DNA of 64,000 nt, from NCBI GenBank assembly GCA_046292385.1, contig JBKBRF010000011.1:32001-96000 (forward strand), read 5' to 3'. Below are positions 20,071 through 55,532 of this stretch, piece by piece; within the stretch, counting starts at the first letter, position 1, and every line of letters begins with the position of its first letter. This DNA is from Armatimonadota bacterium (GTDB lineage: Bacteria > Armatimonadota > SYMT01). Below the pieces are notes generated by a model. That model was not told the DNA's origin and searched no databases. It was given only the letters and a program-made list of their open reading frames with translations. Position numbers and translations under genes: made by a program.

Positions 20071-21405
20071 CTAGCGCCGGGTGTGCGTGACGCGCCAGAC
20101 CACGTTGCCGCCGTCGTCCGTGACGAAGAGGCTGCCGCTGCGGCCCGTGGTGACGCCGACCGGCCGGCCCCACACGTCCCCCTCCGGCGTGACGAAGCCG
20201 GTCATGAAGTCCTCGTAGACGCCGCTCGCCTTGCCGTTCTCCACCGGCACGCGGATCACTTTGTACCCGGTGCGGCGGGCGCGGTTCCAGGAGCCGTGCA
20301 GCGCGGCGAAGGCGTGGTTGCGGTACTCCCGCGGGAATTGATCGCCGGTGTAGAAGGCCATGTCGAGCGAGGCGGAGTGGCTCTGGAGCAGCACGTCCGG
20401 CACGATCACTTTGTCCTTCAGCTCCGGCCGCTTGCCCGGGTGGCGCGGGTCCTGATTGGGGCCGATGTAGTACCACGGCCAGCCGTAGAAGCCGCCGTCG
20501 CGCACGCGCGTGATGTAGTCCGGCACCAGGTGGTCGCCCAGCTCGTCGCGCTCGTTGACGGAGGTCCAGATGTCGCCGGTGGTCGGGTGGATCGCCAGGC
20601 CGACCGGGTTCCGGATGCCGGAGGCGTAGAGGCGGTAGCCGGTGCCGTCCGGGTTGTACTCCAGGATCGAGGCGCGCCGGTCCTCGCGGGCATCGTCGCT
20701 CACGTTGGAGAGGGAGCCGACCGAGACGTAGAGCTTCTTGCCGTCTTTGGAGAAGGCGAGGTCGCGCGTCCAATGCCCGCCGCCCCGCAGCCGCCCGTGG
20801 CCCGGGATGTCCGGCACCACCATCTCCGCCGCGCCGCGCGCCTGGGTGTCGCCGTTCCGGTAGGGGATGCGGACCACCGAGTCGGTGTTGCCCACGTAGA
20901 GCCACTCCGGGTTCCGGCTCGTCGGGTAGAAGGCGATCCCGAACGGCAGCGTCAGGCCGGTAGCGAAGACCTGGTTCAGCTCCGGCTTGCCGTCGTTATC
21001 GGCATCGCGCAGGATCCGGAGCCGGCCGGGACGGCTCTCCGCGACGAATAGGTCGCCGTTCGGCGCGGTGACGATGACCCGGGGGTTGTCTAGACCGGAC
21101 GCGAACAGCTCCGCCTGGAAGCCCTCCGGAACCTTCGGCAGGGCGCCTTCGGGGCGCCGCACCATCCGCGGGCCGTTATCGACAGAGGGGGTGTCGTACG
21201 GCTTGGGAAGGTCGGCGAGAGTGAGCTTGCGGCGCACGCCGGGCGCGTCGGTGGTCCAGTCGCCCAGCGCCGCCTCGCCGGTCAGCACCGGACGCTCGCG
21301 GCTGCCCTGCGCCACGCCGGGCTGGGTGAAGAGGGCGCACGCTCCCGCGGCGGCGGCCAGGGGGATGAGAAAAGCTGCCTGTTTCAGACGGCTAGCACGA
21401 TTCAT
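20071..21405 (-). CDS. PQQ-dependent sugar / L-sorbosone dehydrogenase family protein
   Basis: Signal peptide; GLDNPR, GIRNPVGL, NERDELGDHLVPDY, FYGWP, HGSWNR, GRPVGV; AGGAGG RBS. Confidence 0.92.
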   Translation of the reverse strand: MNRASRLKQAAFLIPLAAAAGACALFTQPGVAQGSRERPVLTGEAALGDWTTDAPGVRRKLTLADLPKPYDTPSVDNGPRMVRRPEGALPKVPEGFQAELFASGLDNPRVIVTAPNGDLFVAESRPGRLRILRDADNDGKPELNQVFATGLTLPFGIAFYPTSRNPEWLYVGNTDSVVRIPYRNGDTQARGAAEMVVPDIPGHGRLRGGGHWTRDLAFSKDGKKLYVSVGSLSNVSDDAREDRRASILEYNPDGTGYRLYASGIRNPVGLAIHPTTGDIWTSVNERDELGDHLVPDYITRVRDGGFYGWPWYYIGPNQDPRHPGKRPELKDKVIVPDVLLQSHSASLDMAFYTGDQFPREYRNHAFAALHGSWNRARRTGYKVIRVPVENGKASGVYEDFMTGFVTPEGDVWGRPVGVTTGRSGSLFVTDDGGNVVWRVTHTRR

Positions 21406-21441
21406 ACGAGTGAATGCCTCCTGCACCAACTTATCCGAGAT

Positions 21442-21900
21442 GGGGGCGGGAGTCGACCTTAGTCGGGCCCGCGGATTGCTCGGGTTCTTGTCGACCGGCT
21501 GGGTCGATCCCGGCGCTACGACCCCGTGCCCTTGTGCCGGGAGGCAGCCCTCCCGCGACGGGGGCCCTCCGCCGGCCCTTTCACACTCCGCTTCGCTCCG
21601 CTAGCGGGCCGCTCCGGGAGTGCGCGCCGATTCGCTCTTCCCGCGCCACCGTGCCCTACCGTATCTAAAGCGCGGTTCACGGGCTGCCTCCCGGCCCTTC
21701 GAGCAAACTCCCCTGGGCCCAGGGGAGTTCACAAGTGGCGCCCTGCGGGCGCCTCGGTTTCTGGCTTCTACCGAGTCGGCGTGTCCTCTCACTCGACGCT
21801 GGCGCCATGGGCGGGAGCGCATCCGCGGAGCGAGCGTCTGCCTTCGGATCGGCGGCGAGGAGTCCGCCGGCGTAGAGCCGAACAGCACTCGGTCCCCGTC
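21442..21900 (-). ncRNA. Candidate large structured non-coding RNA (family unassigned)
   Basis: No credible ORF; nested long-range helices incl. a perfect 15-bp pair 21536-21550/21681-21695, many hairpins, purine-rich loops on the minus strand. Strand and ends inferred. Confidence 0.55.
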
Positions 21901-21979
21901 GGCAGGGCTGCGAGCGAACGAGAGGGTCGCGCGCCCTCCTCTTTCATCTCCCCTCTCCCCTCTTCTAATCTTGGACGGT

Positions 21980-23020
21980 ATGGAGCTACTGAAGGAGCTG
22001 TGTGAGGCGGCCGGTATCCCCGGCCGGGAAGAGCGCCTGCGTGCCATCGTGCGGCGGGAGCTGGAGCCGCTGGTGGACGAGCTCCGGGTCGACGCACTCG
22101 GCAACCTGATCGCGGTGCGGCGAGGAAGCAGCGGAAAGAAGCTGGCGATCGCGGCGCACATGGACGAGATCGGGTTCCTGGTCACCTACATCGAGGAAGA
22201 GAGCGGCTTCCTGCGGCTAAATCCGGTGGGCGGGCACGACCCCCGCAACATGGTGGCGCAGCGGGTGAAGGTGGTCGGAAAGCAGGATCTCCCCGGCGTC
22301 CTCTACCCCGGCCAGAAGCCGCCGCACCTGCTGGACGGCGAGGACAAGAACAAGACCGCGAAGGTCTCGGAGTTCTTCGTCGATCTCGGCCTGCCGGTGA
22401 AAGAGGTGCGGGAGCTGGTGCCGATCGGCTCCATGGTGGTGATCGACCGCCCCTTTGCGGAGATCGGCCACTGCGTGAGCTGCAAGGCGATGGACAACCG
22501 CGTCTCGGTCTTCGTGATGATCGAGGCGCTCCGAAAGGCGAAGCGCTCCGGGTTCGAGGTCTACGCGCTGGCGACGGTGCAGGAGGAGGTCGGCCTGCGG
22601 GGCGTCCTCACCGCCACCTACGCGGTCGAGCCGGACGTGGCGCTGGCACTCGACATCACCATCGCGGCGGATATCCCCGGGGTGCCGGAGCACGAGCGCG
22701 TGACCTGTGTCGGTAACGGCACCGCGATCAAGATCATGGACTCCGCCAGCATCTCCAACGCGAGGATGGTGGAAGTACTGCGCGAACTGGCGCTGCGGCG
22801 CGAGATCCCGCACCAGATGGAGATCCTGCCCCGGGGCGGCACCGACGCCGGCGGCATGCAGCGCGTCCGAGCGGGAGCGCCCGCCTGCACCGTCTCGATC
22901 CCCGCCCGCTACGTCCACACCTCGATCGAGCTCTGCGCGAAGCGCGACATCGAGGCGACGATCGATCTGGTCGCCGCTTTCATCGAAGAGGGACACGGGC
23001 ACGACTACCTTCCCCGGTGA
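21980..23020 (+). CDS. M42 family metallo-aminopeptidase
   Basis: AAHMDEIG, KAMDNR, VQEEVGLRG, GGTDAG, RYVHT; ATG 21980. Confidence 0.93.
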   Translation: MELLKELCEAAGIPGREERLRAIVRRELEPLVDELRVDALGNLIAVRRGSSGKKLAIAAHMDEIGFLVTYIEEESGFLRLNPVGGHDPRNMVAQRVKVVGKQDLPGVLYPGQKPPHLLDGEDKNKTAKVSEFFVDLGLPVKEVRELVPIGSMVVIDRPFAEIGHCVSCKAMDNRVSVFVMIEALRKAKRSGFEVYALATVQEEVGLRGVLTATYAVEPDVALALDITIAADIPGVPEHERVTCVGNGTAIKIMDSASISNARMVEVLRELALRREIPHQMEILPRGGTDAGGMQRVRAGAPACTVSIPARYVHTSIELCAKRDIEATIDLVAAFIEEGHGHDYLPR

Positions 23021-23259: not shown

Positions 23260-24417
23260 ATGAAAATCACCAACGTAAACACCCACGTCGTCGGCAATCC
23301 GTGGAAGAACTGGGTCTTCGTGACGGTGGAGACCGACGAGGGGATCACCGGGGTCGGCGAGGGGACGGTCAACTGCTTCGGCAGGACCACCGAGCAGGCG
23401 ATCCTGGAGCTCTCCCACCACGTCATCGGCATGGACCCGTTCCAGACCGAGATGGTCCACCAGAAGCTGGTGCGGGACGTCTACTCCGAAGGCGGGCAGG
23501 TCCACCGCAGCGCGGCGTGCGCGCTGGAGGTCGCCTGCTGGGACATCATCGGCAAGGCGCTGAACCAGCCGATCTACAACCTCCTGGGCGGTCGCTGCCA
23601 TCAGAAGGTTCGAGCCTACGCCAACGGCTGGTATCGGGGCGAGCGGACGCCGGAGATGTTCTACGAGCAGGCGAAGGCGGTGGCGGAGGCCGGCTACACG
23701 GCGCTGAAGTTCGACCCGTTCGGCGCGGAGTGGCGGATCATGGACCGCTACGAGGAAGACCTCTCGCTCGACATCATCGTTGCCGTCCGGGACGCAGTGG
23801 GGCCGAAGGTCGATATCTTCGTCGAAGGGCACAACCGCTTCAGCCCCGCCATCGCGCTGAAGTTCGCCGAGCGGATGGCGCCGTACCAGCCCTCCTGGTT
23901 CGAGGAGCCGGTGGCGCACCAGCACATCGGCGCGCTGGTGGAGGTGGCCCGCAACAGCCCGGTGCCGGTGGCGACCGGCGAGAGCCTCACCAGCACTCAC
24001 CAGTTCGCGGAGCTGCTCAGCTACAACGCGGTCAGCATCCTGCAGCCGGAGATCCACCACCTCGGCGGACTGCTGCCGGCGAAGAAGGTGTGCGGGATGG
24101 TCGACGCCTTCTACGGGGTCGTGGCGCCGCACAACGCGCAGGGACCCGTCTCCACGGCGATGTGCCTGCAGCTCGCCGCCTGCACGCCCAACTTCTACGT
24201 GCAGGAGATCTTCGACGAGTACAACGTGGCCTGGGAGCAGGACCTGGTCGACTTCCCCTGCCACGTCAAGGACGGCTGGATCGAGATCCCGGAGCGGCCC
24301 GGCCTCGGCGTGGAGCTGAACCTGGACGAGTGCGCGAAGCACCCGTACGAGCGTGCCTACTTCCTGCCGCTCTTCAAGCCCGGCTGGGAGAAGCGCGAGG
24401 GAACCGTCGAGCCGTAG
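23260..24417 (+). CDS. Mandelate racemase/muconate lactonizing enzyme family dehydratase (galactonate dehydratase-like)
   Basis: WDIIGKA, YANGW, KFDPFG, WFEEP, ATGE, APHN, PGLGVE. Confidence 0.9.
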   Translation: MKITNVNTHVVGNPWKNWVFVTVETDEGITGVGEGTVNCFGRTTEQAILELSHHVIGMDPFQTEMVHQKLVRDVYSEGGQVHRSAACALEVACWDIIGKALNQPIYNLLGGRCHQKVRAYANGWYRGERTPEMFYEQAKAVAEAGYTALKFDPFGAEWRIMDRYEEDLSLDIIVAVRDAVGPKVDIFVEGHNRFSPAIALKFAERMAPYQPSWFEEPVAHQHIGALVEVARNSPVPVATGESLTSTHQFAELLSYNAVSILQPEIHHLGGLLPAKKVCGMVDAFYGVVAPHNAQGPVSTAMCLQLAACTPNFYVQEIFDEYNVAWEQDLVDFPCHVKDGWIEIPERPGLGVELNLDECAKHPYERAYFLPLFKPGWEKREGTVEP

Positions 24418-24469
24418 ACCCCGCTCAGGGGTAGGCAGGAAGTAGCGCCGGCTTTTCGACCGGCAGGTC

Positions 24470-24523
24470 TGAGCCCGCGCAGGCGGGCTTCGCCCTCTGT
24501 AGCCTCGACTTCAGTCGCAGGCG
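24470..24523. repeat. REP-like palindrome
   Basis: GAGCCCGCGCAGGCGGGCTT hairpin followed by GTAGCCTCGACTTCAGTCG, between convergent genes. Confidence 0.5.
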
Positions 24524-24552
24524 GGAACCCGGCAGAACTTCTTACCCACCCG

Positions 24553-25668
24553 TTAGGGAAGCCGCCGGACGGCGACCAGCGTGATGTCGTCCGGCGGCTC
24601 CGGGGCCAGCTCCAGCAGCCCGGCCGCCACCTGCTCCACGAGCTGCTGCGGCGGGAGCTGCCGGTGACGCAGGAGACGCTCGGCGAGGCCCGCCTCCTCC
24701 AGGCGGCCTCCGCCGGGCAGCGGGACGTCGGTCGCGCCGTCCGTGTAGCCGAGCAGGAGGTCGCCGGTCTCCAACGTGACACACACCTCTTCGGCGTCCA
24801 GCTCCGGGATCACCCCCAGCGGCATCGCGGTCGGCATGAGCTGCTCGTGCGTGCCGTCTGCCCGGAGCAGGAGCTGGGGATCGTGGCCCGCGCTGGCATA
24901 CCGGAGCTCGCCGGTGGCGCAGTGGAGCAGCCCGTAGAAGACGGTCACGAACAGCTCATCGGGGAAGCGCTCCACCAGCCGGGCGTTGACCTCCGCCAGG
25001 GCGCGGGCCGGGCTTTCGGTGCGCGACGGCGCATGATCCAGCAGGCCGATCAGCACGGCGCCCGCGAGGGCCGCGGGCGGGCCCTTGCCGGAGACGTCGG
25101 CGATGATGATCACCAGGTGCCCGTTCTCGGGAGAGAGCTGCGCGGCGTCCCCGCCGACGATGCGGGCCGGCTTGAGGTAGAGGCCCAGCTCCAGGCCTGG
25201 CACCGGCGGCGGCGGCGACATCAGCAGGTCCTGGAGCTTCCGGGTGTCGTTCAGGTCGTTCTCCAGGCGGCGGTTCACCGCCTCGAGCTCCTCCTTCTGC
25301 TCCAGCACCAACTGCTGCCGGCGGGCCACCGAGGCGCTCCCGTAGGCCACGGCCAGGAATACGACCGTGCTCAGTAGCTCGTTCGCCAGCAGGATCTCCG
25401 GCGAGACCGTAAGGGCGGCCTCCGTGCGCTGAATCCACTCGGTGGTCGCGTTGAGCAGGGTGGCGAGGATCGTCACGGCTAGCGCGCCGCGAAGGCCGGC
25501 GAGAAAGCCCGCGCGGGCGATCGGAAAGATGTAGAACGCGGACGCCACGACCCAAACGCCGCTCCCGTAGTCGACCAGCGCCGCCGCCGCGAGCGGAATC
25601 AACACACTGGCCCACTGACGAACTGCCGAGAACGGCGGTGACGGCGTGCGAGGGGAGGCGGAGTTCAT
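24553..25668 (-). CDS. Membrane-anchored PP2C/SpoIIE (RsbU-like) phosphatase
   Basis: N-terminal TM helices, coiled coil, VGGD, ADVSGKG, SAGH, YTDG, DDIT. Confidence 0.9.
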   Translation of the reverse strand: MNSASPRTPSPPFSAVRQWASVLIPLAAAALVDYGSGVWVVASAFYIFPIARAGFLAGLRGALAVTILATLLNATTEWIQRTEAALTVSPEILLANELLSTVVFLAVAYGSASVARRQQLVLEQKEELEAVNRRLENDLNDTRKLQDLLMSPPPPVPGLELGLYLKPARIVGGDAAQLSPENGHLVIIIADVSGKGPPAALAGAVLIGLLDHAPSRTESPARALAEVNARLVERFPDELFVTVFYGLLHCATGELRYASAGHDPQLLLRADGTHEQLMPTAMPLGVIPELDAEEVCVTLETGDLLLGYTDGATDVPLPGGGRLEEAGLAERLLRHRQLPPQQLVEQVAAGLLELAPEPPDDITLVAVRRLP

Positions 25669-25985
25669 CAGAGCGACAGTTGGTGCGCCCGCGGCGCAGG
25701 CGCTCTGCGCTGAGTTTACCGTGCGATCGCAGTTGGACCGCCAGCCTTACACCGCGATCCCGCCGCCGACCGCCCTGGAGATCGGATTGCGCGCAGAACG
25801 CGCTTTCCGGACGAGGATCGCCGGAAGCGCAGAGCCAAACTGAAGATCGCAAGTGTGTGCCGGAGGATGTCGCGCCGAAGGTTCACCTCTCGGCGCTTCT
25901 CAACTCCGCCGGTCCGCACGAGGTGAAGCGGCGGCTGGAGGTCTCGTTCCAATGCAAAGGATGATCCGCACCATGCGTCAGGAAG

Positions 25986-26846
25986 ATGAGGAGTAACCGC
26001 GTGGAGAAGCGTCCGTTCGGGCCCACGGGCCGCATCGTCCCGGCGATTGGGCAGGGCACCTGGTTTCTGGACCAGGCCGACCGGCGCACCGCCGTCGCGG
26101 CGCTACGGCGCGGCCTGGAGCTCGGCATGACCCACCTGGACACGGCAGAGATGTACGGGGACGGAGCCGCGGAAGAGGTGGTCGGCGAGGCGATTGCCGG
26201 GCGGCGGGAAGAGGTCTTCCTTGTTTCCAAGGTCCTGCCGCACAACGCCTCGCGCGCCGGCACGATCGAGGCGTGCGAGCGCTCGCTCGCGGCGCTCCGG
26301 ACCGACTACCTCGACTGCTACCTGCTGCACTGGCCCGGTCCGTACCCGCTGGAGGAAACGTTCGCCGCCTTCCGGGAGCTGCAGCGCGCGGGGAAGATCC
26401 GCTCCTGGGGCGTGAGCAACTTCCACGTGCCGGACCTGGATGCCGCGCTGGAGGCGGCCGGACCGGAGGAGATCGCCTGCAACCAGGTGCTCTATCACCT
26501 CGAGTCGCGGGGGATCGAGCACGAGGTGATCCCCTGGTGCGAGGAGCGCGGGATCGCGGTGGTGGCATACAGCCCCTTCGCACACGGCCAGTTCCCGGCC
26601 CTGGACACCGCCGGGGGGCGGGTGCTCCGGGAGATCGCTCTCGCGCGCGGTGCCACTCCGAGGCAGGTAGCCCTCGCCTTCCTCACGCGCCGGGCCGGCC
26701 TCTTCGCCATCCCCAAGGCCGCCGATCCGGAGCACGCGGCGGAGAATGCCGGGGCCGGGGAGCTCCGCTTGAACGAGGCGGAGATCGCCCGGATCGAAGC
26801 GGCGTTTCCCCGTGGGCCGCGCCCGCGCACCCTTCCGATGCTGTAG
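25986..26846 (+). CDS. Aldo/keto reductase
   Basis: IGQGTW, LDTAEMYG, SKV, YLLHWP, GVSNF, NQVLY, AYSP, IPKA. Confidence 0.95.
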   Translation: MRSNRVEKRPFGPTGRIVPAIGQGTWFLDQADRRTAVAALRRGLELGMTHLDTAEMYGDGAAEEVVGEAIAGRREEVFLVSKVLPHNASRAGTIEACERSLAALRTDYLDCYLLHWPGPYPLEETFAAFRELQRAGKIRSWGVSNFHVPDLDAALEAAGPEEIACNQVLYHLESRGIEHEVIPWCEERGIAVVAYSPFAHGQFPALDTAGGRVLREIALARGATPRQVALAFLTRRAGLFAIPKAADPEHAAENAGAGELRLNEAEIARIEAAFPRGPRPRTLPML

Positions 26847-40254: not shown

Positions 40255-40282
40255 TGTGGAGTGCGGTGGCTTGCCACCGCTT
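40255..40282 (+). repeat. REP-like palindrome TGTGGAGTGCGGTGGCTTGCCACCGCTT (family E)
   Basis: Matches the 38086-38113 copy, with covarying stem. Confidence 0.7.
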
Positions 40283-40474
40283 CCCCGCCAGGGGAATGGC
40301 GCCGAAGGGCTCGGCAGCCGGTGAGCCACCTGCTCCGCTGATTTCGCTAAGAGAATCTAGCGAGGGATGGCCGCTCCGCCCGGTCAGGGCGCGGGGCGGG
40401 ACCCCGTGGCGATGCCGTCCACGAACGAGAGTCAAAACGCCCGGTCCACCGGGAAATCCTACGGAGTAAATCTT

Positions 40475-55290: not shown

Positions 55291-55363
55291 TGGAGCAGAG
55301 GGGACTCGAACCCCTGACCCTCACGCTGCCAGCGTGATGCTCTCCCAGCTGAGCTACTGCCCC
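55291..55363 (-). tRNA. tRNA-Ala(GGC), CCA not encoded
   Basis: GGGGCAG acceptor with G3:U70, TAGCTCAGCTGGGAGAGC D-arm, TCACG-CTGGCAG-CGTGA anticodon arm, GGTTCGAGTCC T-arm. Confidence 0.97.
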
Positions 55364-55433: not shown

Positions 55434-55532
55434 TGGCGGGGATGTGTGGGAATCGAACCCACCCAAGACAGGATCAACTGCCTCGAACAAGGTTTTGAAG
55501 ACCCGCCGAGCCACCAGGCCCGATCCACCCCC
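55434..55532 (-). tRNA. selC: tRNA-Sec(UCA)
   Basis: 8-nt acceptor strands, 6-bp D stem, CTTCAAA anticodon loop, long variable arm, GTGGG-TTCGATT-CCCAC, terminal GCCA; next to selD and selA. Confidence 0.93.

Follow-up and report, generated by a model that had tools for sequence, protein, structure and literature searches.

An apparently undescribed structured repeat in intergenic DNA of an Armatimonadota bacterium and two related genera

The gap between two divergent genes of an Armatimonadota bacterium holds a single member of an intergenic repeat family with many copies; the conserved unit spans about 290 nt (21485-21775, minus strand). All coordinates refer to the window, the whole 64,000-nt stretch of DNA that was analysed. 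The fold of the repeat is kept by compensatory change in more than 100 copies from three genera, and the family is an unusual, apparently undescribed kind of structured repeat. We give a probability of roughly 55% to the reading that it is a lineage-restricted, non-autonomous structured mobile repeat, composed of interspersed non-coding modules of ~230-290 nt, and that the copy in the window has long sat as a passenger between the divergent dehydrogenase and peptidase genes.

Extent of the element and its setting

The preliminary description of this locus had placed an ornate structured RNA of about 460 nt (21442-21900) in the gap between divergent sugar dehydrogenase and M42 peptidase genes. 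Domain matches and coordinates bear out the gap: a glucose/sorbosone dehydrogenase (GSDH) family gene lies on one side (20071-21405, minus strand; PF07995, 1.8e-20) and an M42 glutamyl aminopeptidase gene on the other (21980-23020, plus strand, divergent from the dehydrogenase gene; PF05343, 2.7e-86). The dehydrogenase gene, which starts with an ATG at 21405-21403 and has GGAGG just before it, is downstream of the folded strand and runs in the same direction. A scan of 21300-22100 gave no promoter-like and two terminator-like sites, both outside the element, and is uninformative at such high GC.

When the window copy was compared with 57 aligned copies, similarity set in at about 21497-21519 and was lost at about 21750-21766, and the coverage profile rose at 21510-21530 and fell at 21740-21760. 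A weakly conserved 5' AGAAAC motif and a 3' CAAGAA tail stretch the module to about 21485-21775. These similarity limits, the coverage profile and the fold together define a solo copy of the type-A module (see below). Its core was matched over the full length of our covariance model R1 (21508-21737, minus strand; 217.9 bits, E = 4e-51, model positions 1-229 of 229), and it is the only full copy of the family within the window. The minus-strand flanks, at 21776-21900 on one side and at 21442-21484, between the element and the region of the dehydrogenase start codon, on the other, each have a coverage of 1 in the genome and lie outside the family.

Comparison with shuffled sequences, one of the checks proposed for the 460-nt RNA, favoured the inner element and not its 5' flank. 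On the minus strand, 21485-21775 alone folded with z = -3.48 (0 of 200 shuffles as good), whereas 21776-21910 showed no excess folding (z = +0.65; 142 of 200 shuffles as good). The z of -2.93 obtained for the entire 21442-21900 stretch on the minus strand reflects the signal of the repeat inside it. The two outermost helices of the preliminary description can be drawn in the minimum-energy structure of that stretch, but they were built on sequence that occurs once in the genome, beyond the limits of similarity among the 57 aligned copies. The region had also been thought to share no motif with the REP/MITE families of the window, and scattered copies had been named as evidence against a distinct RNA; in one sense the first statement is wrong, since the core belongs to a repeat family of its own that numbers 144 covariance-model matches in this genome and 16 and 8 in two related genera. 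With its signal drawn from the inner repeat, its flanks single-copy and its core present 144 times, a single ~460-nt ornate non-coding RNA or leader peculiar to 21442-21900 is extremely improbable. What stands of the original proposal is a strand-specific, multi-helix, RNA-like fold; the discrete, locus-specific gene or leader does not, the unit being ~290 nt. In annotation, the "ornate RNA" at this position should be labelled as a member of a repeat family rather than as a locus-specific gene.

A search of the whole window against Rfam 15 at the gathering threshold gave no match at 21350-22050. At E<=10 the same region gave three chance-level matches (12.6-18.5 bits), and at E<=5 no family recurred among 20 copies. 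A full-text literature search, judged from its listings, returned no description of such a repeat family; the matched passage of one preprint (10.64898/2026.10.21.760802) has no bearing on it. A group II intron, including an ORF-less one, was rejected, there being no Rfam intron match at the locus or among the 20 copies and no reverse transcriptase (PF00078) match in this genome.

Conserved fold and folded strand

From 5' to 3', the module consists of a variable-length hairpin, a CACUUGUGA linker, hairpin H1 and then a multibranch domain that helices H2 and H3 close and whose junction letters are near-invariant. We modelled eight helices per ~230-290-nt unit, with 46 pairs in each A or B arm. 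Several stems of the preliminary description turned out to be helices of the family, all on the minus strand. Its 24-nt palindrome is H1 (21706-21729), in which nine pairs, six of them changed on both sides, were paired in 97.8% of cells across 50 copies. Its perfect 15-bp helix is H3 (21681-21695 with 21536-21550), which closes the multibranch domain; 94.9% of cells were paired, and 12 of the 15 pairs had changed on both sides, in mixes of CG, GC, UA and AU. The GGCCC..GUGAAA..GGGCC stem corresponds to H7 (21606-21612 with 21571-21578, in the region 21571-21612), where six of seven pairs showed two-sided changes. All three helices covary strongly. H7 encloses a GCUAGC..GUGAAA junction, whose letters are near-invariant across three genera, together with the variable-length hairpin H8 (21585-21601). 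The five pairs of H2 (21701-21705 with 21527-21531) were paired in 100% of cells; at the outer pair, 31 copies have CG, 9 have AU and 9 have UA, and one position is U.G in 49 of 50. H4 (21678-21680 with 21643-21645) is invariant and hence gives no covariation evidence either way, and between its arms the sequence of a hypervariable hairpin region (21646-21677) varies freely among copies.

The ends of the module are less uniform. The GGCGCCC/GGGCGCC hairpin noticed earlier (P0, 21737-21753) is the short form of the variable-length 5' hairpin kept by the family; in the alignments, other copies have a longer insert and GGA/GGA internal loops with the same closing pairs. A CUCGGU..ACCGAG hairpin holding a GCCAGAAACC motif (21753-21774) belongs to one subfamily only and is shared with just a few copies, e.g., L016, L047, L020 and L027. 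At the other end, a small UCGAC/GUCGA hairpin followed by CAAGAA can be read from the sequence (21491-21508), and most copies have a short hairpin and an A-rich tail there. The proposed GCCACUUGUG/CACAAGGGC helix fared worse: it shows no covariation (83.0% paired versus 83.0% in shuffles, 306 of 500 as high), and it competes with H2, which does covary.

Taken over 50 copies, 97.2% of pair cells were paired, versus 81.4% in shuffles (0 of 500 as high), and two-sided changes were found in 27 of the 46 pairs. Copies from the two other genera were paired in 89.9% of cells, versus 75.0% in shuffles. The fold thus passed the covariation test both within the genome and across genera. An unsupervised mutual-information scan recovered the same helices; it yielded no extra tertiary pairs, only the modelled helices and indel noise. 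Differences between nearest-neighbour copies comprised 217 pair-keeping double changes, 113 single changes that left the pair intact and 161 single pair-breaking changes.

The folded strand could be read from the mismatches that the pairs tolerate. In 123 copies, 417 cells are G.U and 43 are A.C; therefore, the strand that folds is the minus strand of the window, as had been proposed from this single copy. In the same 123 copies, 97.0% of cells were paired on that strand, as against 90.4% on the opposite one.

Copies, doublets and possible partner enzymes

The genome (7.04 Mb) contains 144 covariance-model matches, alongside 145 nhmmer hits, 62 BLAST matches and 123 BLAST HSPs. The 16 matches of one related genus are those of genome G005, and no covariance-model match was found in genomes G001 and G002. 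The copies span three genera of one family. A loose DNA pattern scan returned 4 viral and at least 97 genome loci; none of the 84 that were retrieved matched R1, and these loci were dismissed as chance matches in GC-rich DNA. A stricter pattern returned no viral contig and one metagenome contig, which was confirmed at 139.9 bits. The copies are old: they are 15-30% diverged, with a median nearest-neighbour distance of 14.7% and a minimum of 2.2%.

Copies are mostly intergenic, only 7 of 135 falling inside ORFs (by crude ORF calls), and the genes that adjoin them are unrelated. When 325 neighbouring ORFs were clustered in a search for an adjacent transposase, the only recurrent families were the large paralogous GFO/IDH/MocA, DUF1501 and PSD1/PSCyt2 families. 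The gene on the 3' side of A solos runs in the same direction in 19 cases and is convergent in 21; with downstream genes unrelated as well, we rejected a riboswitch or gene-specific leader. B solos are sense to, and after, a gene end in 24 of 32 cases, and a hand count in two relatives placed 12 of 16 gene-facing copies upstream of a gene in the same direction. One prophage holds eight copies, all antisense to phage genes, and four lie inside the type I-E CRISPR-Cas locus of a relative. The folded strand of solos is the locally C-rich strand in 35 of 47 cases (30-kb windows, |skew| > 0.01), a bias that takes in the eight non-independent prophage copies and is gone at 100-kb windows.

Modules are of two types, A and B, which form 26 head-to-head doublets with their 5' ends facing the spacer. 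Of 27 close pairs, 26 join an A to a B module; their gaps measure 59-109 bp, and one pair overlaps. The spacer is GC-rich and has no -10-like box, and within a doublet the folded strand of A is opposite to that of B. Distances among A modules track those among their B partners (Mantel r = 0.60; 0 of 2000 permutations as high), and the doublets are copied as units. A further subfamily has sharp, asymmetric ends, LE and RE, with about 21 LE and 26 RE matches, all of them next to A or B modules or at the end of a contig. In 16 of 20 copies YCTGT forms the left flank; the right end is GCGCTGTG, and hairpins can be read in both LE and RE. The two ends are unrelated to each other, the ends of solos share at most five bases, and no terminal inverted repeat was found; both junctions of the subfamily carry a constant CTGT, and no variable direct repeats were seen. 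Deletion derivatives of the forms LE-A-RE and LE-B-RE occur, as do mosaics in which units are combined with other motifs, such as the LE and RE extensions and CCCTCTGT tracts close by. Neither LE nor RE is present on the window copy.

No transposase gene was found to adjoin any copy, an absence that is unproven in an assembly fragmented at another repeat. (Contig ends stop in another repeat in 80 of 182 cases; five relatives were searched for this palindromic repeat, X, and gave no match.) Of five Y1 (HUH) transposase matches in the genome, two of them strong, none comes closer than 5 kb to a module; repeats of other kinds, present in 16-50 copies, occupy their flanks, and Y1 genes are also present in family members that lack the element. 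Two intact Y1 transposases are encoded at C51:25920-26261 and C22:55627-55965. Two IS110-family recombinase genes (on C91 and C6) are encoded in this genome (G000), neither adjoining a module; C91 shares no sequence with repeat X, and G005 has no IS110 gene despite its 16 copies. A DDE_3 search gave no link to the copies. TnpB (PF07282) had no match in G000, and PF01385 none in G000, G005 or G006; a search for RRXRR (PF14239) was also blank, but so was its control, which makes it uninformative. Variable loops matched their own flanks over a mean of 6.5-7.0 nt and the flanks of other copies over 6.6-7.2 nt, and region 21646-21677 of the window copy showed no excess match to its own flanks.

Mobile repeat or functional RNA

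Several known systems share features with the family. In REP/REPIN systems, palindromic arms of ~25 nt pair with each other, and the gene for RAYT, a Y1 HUH transposase, is flanked by its repeats. As in those systems, the repeat described here is interspersed between genes, both singly and in inverted doublets of fixed spacing, and it is the doublet that is copied; compensatory changes keep a single-strand structure, the population is old and diverged, and Y1 genes are present in the genome. Unlike REPINs, however, the arms are 230-290 nt long, each with a multi-helix junction fold of its own, and are of two diverged paralogous types, and no Y1 gene is flanked by modules. Non-autonomous elements derived from IS200/IS605 (PATEs) have asymmetric ends, subterminal hairpins and a fixed short 5' sequence. 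The LE/RE subfamily has such ends and hairpins, no terminal inverted repeat, the constant YCTGT 5' of its left end and a similar sequence at the right end, and its fold is strand-specific; but PATE-like ends are confined to this one subfamily, no related autonomous IS was found, A and B fold on opposite strands, and solos are biased to the C-rich strand. MITEs such as Correia and ERIC are short, non-coding, multi-copy, intergenic repeats with near-identical copies, and can likewise be drawn as structures. In contrast to them, the present family combines a covarying multibranch fold with copies 15-30% diverged, and we found neither terminal inverted repeats, variable target-site duplications nor an autonomous IS with the same ends.

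Our preferred reading, that of a non-autonomous mobile repeat, draws on the high copy number, the intergenic scatter in mixed orientation beside unrelated genes and the unevenness between genera (144 versus 16, 8 and 0). Doublet co-propagation, sharp LE/RE ends and deletion derivatives point the same way, as do the kept fold, the strand asymmetry, the C-rich-strand bias of solos, the Y1 genes of the genome and the copies in a prophage (8) and a CRISPR-Cas locus (4). From these features we infer mobility, a single-strand mechanism and an enzyme that would act on it. The folded single strand, whether ssDNA or transcript, would be what a trans-acting enzyme recognises, and only lineages that keep the fold would propagate. 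The window copy would then be a passenger upstream of the dehydrogenase gene and, if co-transcribed with it, would contribute to the 5' leader of that gene; effects on adjacent genes are likewise conjectural. Against mobility stand the lack of transposases beside copies, the Y1 genes of family members without the element, the failure to find terminal inverted repeats or variable target duplications, the window copy's lack of LE/RE termini and the age of the copies. No empty site was found either: both junctions of the window copy are spanned by short contigs assembled from soil runs and no joint skips it, an absence that carries no weight.

The same fold could instead be that of a functional structured RNA family, spread by duplication with mobility incidental and each copy selected at its own locus, a reading we hold possible but clearly less probable. 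Candidate roles are those of a generic module in leaders or 3'-UTRs, an element for processing or stability, an RNA sponge for a protein, or a ribozyme. Strong covariation within and between genera, near-invariant unpaired junction motifs and a single folded strand all suit it, and the differences between nearest neighbours, mostly compensated despite a median divergence of 14.7%, also fit selection on each copy in place, i.e., a host function. The 12 of 16 upstream, same-direction copies in the relatives hint at a leader role, the B solos are sense after gene ends in 24 of 32 cases, and the head-to-head doublet would yield one sense module per transcript from either direction. But similarity stops at the module, the unit has no conserved promoter or terminator and the spacer no -10-like box, no downstream gene family recurs, A solos show no orientation preference (19 versus 21), and all eight prophage copies are antisense. 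Selection by the host might also act at the level of DNA or mRNA ends. BIMEs of enterobacteria are mosaics of units in alternating orientation, with linker motifs, between genes, and a host-kept repeat of this BIME/REP type, in which A and B units alternate, would serve, for example, in nucleoid-protein binding, supercoiling or mRNA 3'-end protection. The intergenic placement, the fixed relative orientation and spacing of A and B, the mosaics with LE and RE extensions and CCCTCTGT tracts, and the age and divergence of the family agree with this. We nevertheless consider it unlikely: the unit, about six times as large as that of REP, folds into a multi-helix junction rather than a simple palindrome, no binding protein is known, and the G.U excess (417 versus 43 A.C) indicates one folded strand and not duplex DNA.

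HEARO and omega-RNAs and the IS110 bridge RNA are structured RNAs carried by transposons and, like the present family, are large, ornate and multi-copy, with a structure kept by covariation. A reading of the copies as orphaned or non-autonomous guide RNAs of this kind (an omega-RNA of TnpB/IscB, HEARO-like, or an IS110 bridge RNA) draws on the multi-copy, structured, RNA-like element with its asymmetric ends and on the two IS110-family genes in the genome. That identity is very unlikely, as neither a partner nuclease or recombinase nor an Rfam match was found: PF07282 is absent from G000 and PF01385 from G000, G005 and G006, the blank RRXRR search is uninformative, the IS110 genes are not beside copies and G005 carries 16 copies with no IS110, and variable loops show no preference for their own flanks over those of other copies.

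A bolder proposal, possible but clearly less probable than the preferred reading, is that the A and B modules form a new class of large functional RNA on a mobile element, or a domesticated RNA module that works independently of direction, since head-to-head copies give one sense copy from either side. The near-invariant junction letters and the compensated changes between nearest neighbours agree with a precise three-dimensional RNA fold. The RNA could act as a ribozyme, or as the RNA partner of an unrecognised enzyme that drives its own spread; HEARO reportedly proved to be a large functional RNA borne on a mobile element.

In bacteria, dispersed repeats tend to be simple palindromes or decaying relics of transposons. 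A fold that is kept, as here, means that something reads it, be it an enzyme of transposition, a protein that binds RNA or the chemistry of the RNA itself. A single genome supplies 123 full-length, diverged copies, an exceptionally powerful basis for solving the structure by comparison, and the family is a place to seek a new structure-dependent mobility mechanism or a new functional RNA class.

A repeated module between the dehydrogenase and peptidase genes

The genes for a glucose/sorbosone-dehydrogenase-family protein (20071-21405, minus strand; PF07995, 1.8e-20) and an M42 aminopeptidase (21980-23020, plus strand; PF05343, 2.7e-86) are separated by a gap of 575 bp. Rfam 15 has no match in this gap at the gathering level, and a search of 21350-22050 at E<=10 returned three hits only, at 12.6-18.5 bits, which is chance level. 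Across 21430-21910, minus-strand folding is more stable than in shuffled controls (z = -2.93, equalled by none of 100 shuffles); the signal on the plus strand is less clear (z = -1.74). Elsewhere in the window, a tRNA-Sec (66.6 bits) and an adjoining tRNA occur on the minus strand at 55438-55532 and 55291-55363. A single marginal Rfam match to CRISPR-DR28 (24471-24494, minus strand; 35.6 bits, with the cut-off at 35) is probably spurious, because no repeat array surrounds it within 23900-26500.

When 21430-21980 was compared by BLAST with the organism's own assembly (G000; 7.04 Mb, 91 contigs, of which the window is C11:32001-96000), all 62 matches were confined to the inner part. With a word size of 9, 123 HSPs were obtained, including the self-match, and coverage was 1 up to ca. 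21480, 38-121 between 21510 and 21740, and 1-3 past 21770. When 57 strong copies were aligned with MAFFT, similarity ran from ca. 21497-21519 to ca. 21750-21766. An nhmmer profile matched the genome 145 times, with 135 matches near full length, and a covariance model built on the core (229 positions) gave 144 matches, scoring the window copy, the only full copy in the 64-kb window, at 217.9 bits. Since only the core is repeated, the region at 21442-21900 consists of a family member of ca. 290 nt (21485-21775, minus strand) with unique flanks. Thus, what the preliminary description took for a single 460-nt RNA specific to this locus is instead one member of a 144-copy family. Folding energies were also determined for the parts: the element alone gives z = -3.48 (0 of 200 shuffles as good), and the 5' flank alone, at 21776-21910, is no more stable than its shuffles (z = +0.65; 142 of 200 as good). 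The window element is a genuine, apparently undescribed structured element.

Fold and folded strand of the module

The modules fall into two types of common architecture and ca. 70% identity, A (71 copies, including that in the window) and B (64 copies). For 40 type-A copies, RNAalifold predicted 48 pairs, 22 of which have compensatory changes. An alignment of 50 copies of both types yielded a consensus of 46 pairs, in which 97.2% of cells are paired, versus 81.4% after column shuffling (none of 500 shuffles equalled the 97.2%). Both partners vary in 27 of the pairs. Shuffling lowered the covariation score from 0.416 to 0.131, and controls with slid partners were merely 35.6-48.5% paired. Most of the covariation support comes from three minus-strand helices, H1 (21706-21729), H3 (21681-21695 with 21536-21550), and H7 (21606-21612 with 21571-21578); H2 (21701-21705 with 21527-21531, likewise minus strand) contributes one strongly covarying pair. 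The predicted helices H4-H6 are almost invariant among copies, so covariation is uninformative for them. An unsupervised mutual-information scan of 123 copies ranked the same modelled helices at the top. Of the helices in the preliminary description, the inner ones are real, as the covariation of H1, H3, and H7 attests, and the outer ones are unsupported. The proposed pairing of GCCACUUGUG with CACAAGGGC, which competes with H2, shows no covariation: 83.0% of its cells are paired, the same as after shuffling (83.0%), and 306 of 500 shuffles reached this value. The module's 5' hairpin occurs in two lengths, a short one, found in the window copy, and a long one containing GGA/GGA internal loops.

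Of 5628 pair cells, 97.0% hold standard pairs when read on the window minus strand, versus 90.4% on the opposite strand, and there are 417 G.U cells against 43 A.C cells; two U.G pairs are near-invariant (49 of 50 and 50 of 50 copies). The excess of pairing and of G.U over A.C therefore establishes the minus strand as the folded strand, as had been proposed.

Doublets, genomic context, and range

Of 27 close-lying pairs of copies, 26 join one A and one B module. The folded-strand 5' ends in these doublets always face each other, across spacers of 59-109 bp, with one pair overlapping; the remaining 81 copies are solos, to which the window copy belongs. Among 25 doublets, distances between A modules track those between their B partners (Mantel r = 0.60, a value reached in none of 2000 permutations), and therefore doublets were copied as units. 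One subfamily carries extra conserved, sharply stopping ends, a left end of ca. 105 nt beside A (LE) and a right end of ca. 85 nt beside B (RE), which are unrelated to each other and each contain a subterminal hairpin. The left flank of this subfamily reads YCTGT in 16 of 20 cases, the right end is GCGCTGTG, and the forms LE-A-spacer-B-RE, LE-A-RE, and LE-B-RE all occur; neither end is present in the window copy. Tracts of CCCTCTGT-like heptamers flank several of these composites on one or both sides (e.g., C8:52756-52835 and C8:56489-56520).

Placement is intergenic, with 7 of 135 copies inside crude, GC3-based ORF calls. By these rough calls, A solos are oriented nearly at random (the gene on the 3' side runs in the same direction in 19 and is convergent in 21), and B solos more often have the end of a sense-direction gene upstream (24 of 32). 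The recurrent neighbors are only large paralogous families of the genome, namely GFO/IDH/MocA (9), DUF1501 (7), and PSD1/PSCyt2 (5). Outside the window, a prophage at C40:13600-40100 with terminase, portal, capsid, and head/tail completion genes harbors eight modules between its genes, each in the antisense direction relative to them. The folded strand of the 81 solos is on the locally C-rich strand in ca. 65-75% of cases with windows of 10-50 kb (for 30 kb and |skew| > 0.01, 35 of 47; p = 0.001, the eight prophage copies being non-independent); this bias fades at 100 kb. Of G000 genes, 58% are on the G-rich strand.

Among 151 sampled genomes of the phylum, matches were found only in G000 and in two genomes from other genera of its family; the 144 genomes outside the family gave no match under Infernal's stricter filters. 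Direct searches found 16 copies in G005, which also has head-to-head pairs, and 8 in G006, where they form tandem runs, and none in G001 or G002. A strict pattern retrieved one metagenome contig with a copy (139.9 bits) and had no match among IMG/VR contigs. Across genera, in an alignment fitted to the model and including two junk rows, the fold is 89.9% paired versus 75.0% in shuffles, with both-side changes in 25 of 46 pairs. Junction motifs such as GCUAGC..GUGAAAGG..GGAGGGC..CGCGGGAGGG are near-invariant. The genes neighboring the relatives' copies are mutually unrelated. A type I-E CRISPR-Cas locus of G005 (C3:824001-842000) has two modules between cas6e and cas1 and two more in a 5.4-kb ORF-free stretch past cas2.

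A second repeat, X, occupies 80 of the 182 contig ends of G000, always pointing outward. Many X copies are 97-98% identical, so the element that breaks the assembly is young and high-copy; it is probably palindromic. In its inner part, X resembles the A and B modules through a hairpin like H1 and a CAAGTG motif. Older internal copies form inverted pairs of ca. 480 nt (C56:17760-18360 and C6:187280-187880), and the window contains an older, partial copy at ca. 40270-40358 (C11:72270-72358), where R1, the covariance model of the module family, has a weak 19-bit match (40275-40410). X was not found in five relatives. The small IS110-recombinase contig C91 (1413 nt) starts with a GTCATCCTGAACGC motif that is also the central inverted repeat of X, which suggests that the IS110 element sits within the X palindrome.

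Proposed mobility and selection

Candidate partner enzymes were sought by profile. For TnpB, PF07282 had no match in G000 and PF01385 none in G000, G005, or G006; G000 also lacks matches to reverse transcriptase (PF00078) and DDE_3, and the RRXRR search was blank, as was its control. IS110 genes are present in G000, none adjoining a copy, and were not found in G005. Five Y1 (HUH) transposase matches, two of them strong, occur in G000, none near a module, and Y1 genes are also found in relatives without the element. The Y1 genes are flanked by other short repeats of 16-50 copies, distinct from the A/B family (C22:56027-56500, C83:9401-10300, and C5:163628), an arrangement like that of RAYT with REP. 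The variable loops of the modules matched their own flanks no more than those of other copies, and thus carry no guide-like signal. In four soil metagenome runs, short contigs accumulate on 21492-21743, the pattern that a repeat should give, with loose ends from 21519; the two junctions of the window copy are each spanned by individual contigs (21377-21527 and 21695-21967), and no joint skipping the element was found among them.

Elements of the IS200/IS605/REPIN kind move as single strands by "peel and paste." The modules resemble them in their doublet form and one-strand fold tolerating G.T/G.U pairs, and the LE/RE subfamily does so in its asymmetric ends, fixed YCTGT flank, and lack of inverted terminal repeats. 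The closest known kinds are REPIN/REP doublets and IS200/IS605-type non-autonomous elements, from which the modules differ in unit size, in the complex covarying fold of each arm, and in having no linked transposase. We favor a similar single-strand mechanism, by which the modules would be peeled out and pasted in.

Across 123 copies, the distance to the nearest neighbor is 14.7% at the median and at least 2.2%. Stem differences scored over 102 nearest-neighbor pairs comprise 217 double changes that preserve pairing, 113 single changes after which the bases can still pair, and 161 single changes that disrupt the pair in one of the two copies; unpaired cells make up only 3.0% of the total. Were each copy a functional RNA maintained at its own locus, these figures would be accounted for as well. 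The stem data do not separate this explanation from that of a mobile element. We therefore still grant it some probability, as an unlikely alternative, and a little less to the boldest reading, in which the modules are a new class of large functional RNA carried by a mobile element. As a mobile element, the module family would consist of lineages kept under selection for the fold until their last copying event, which fits the stem changes.
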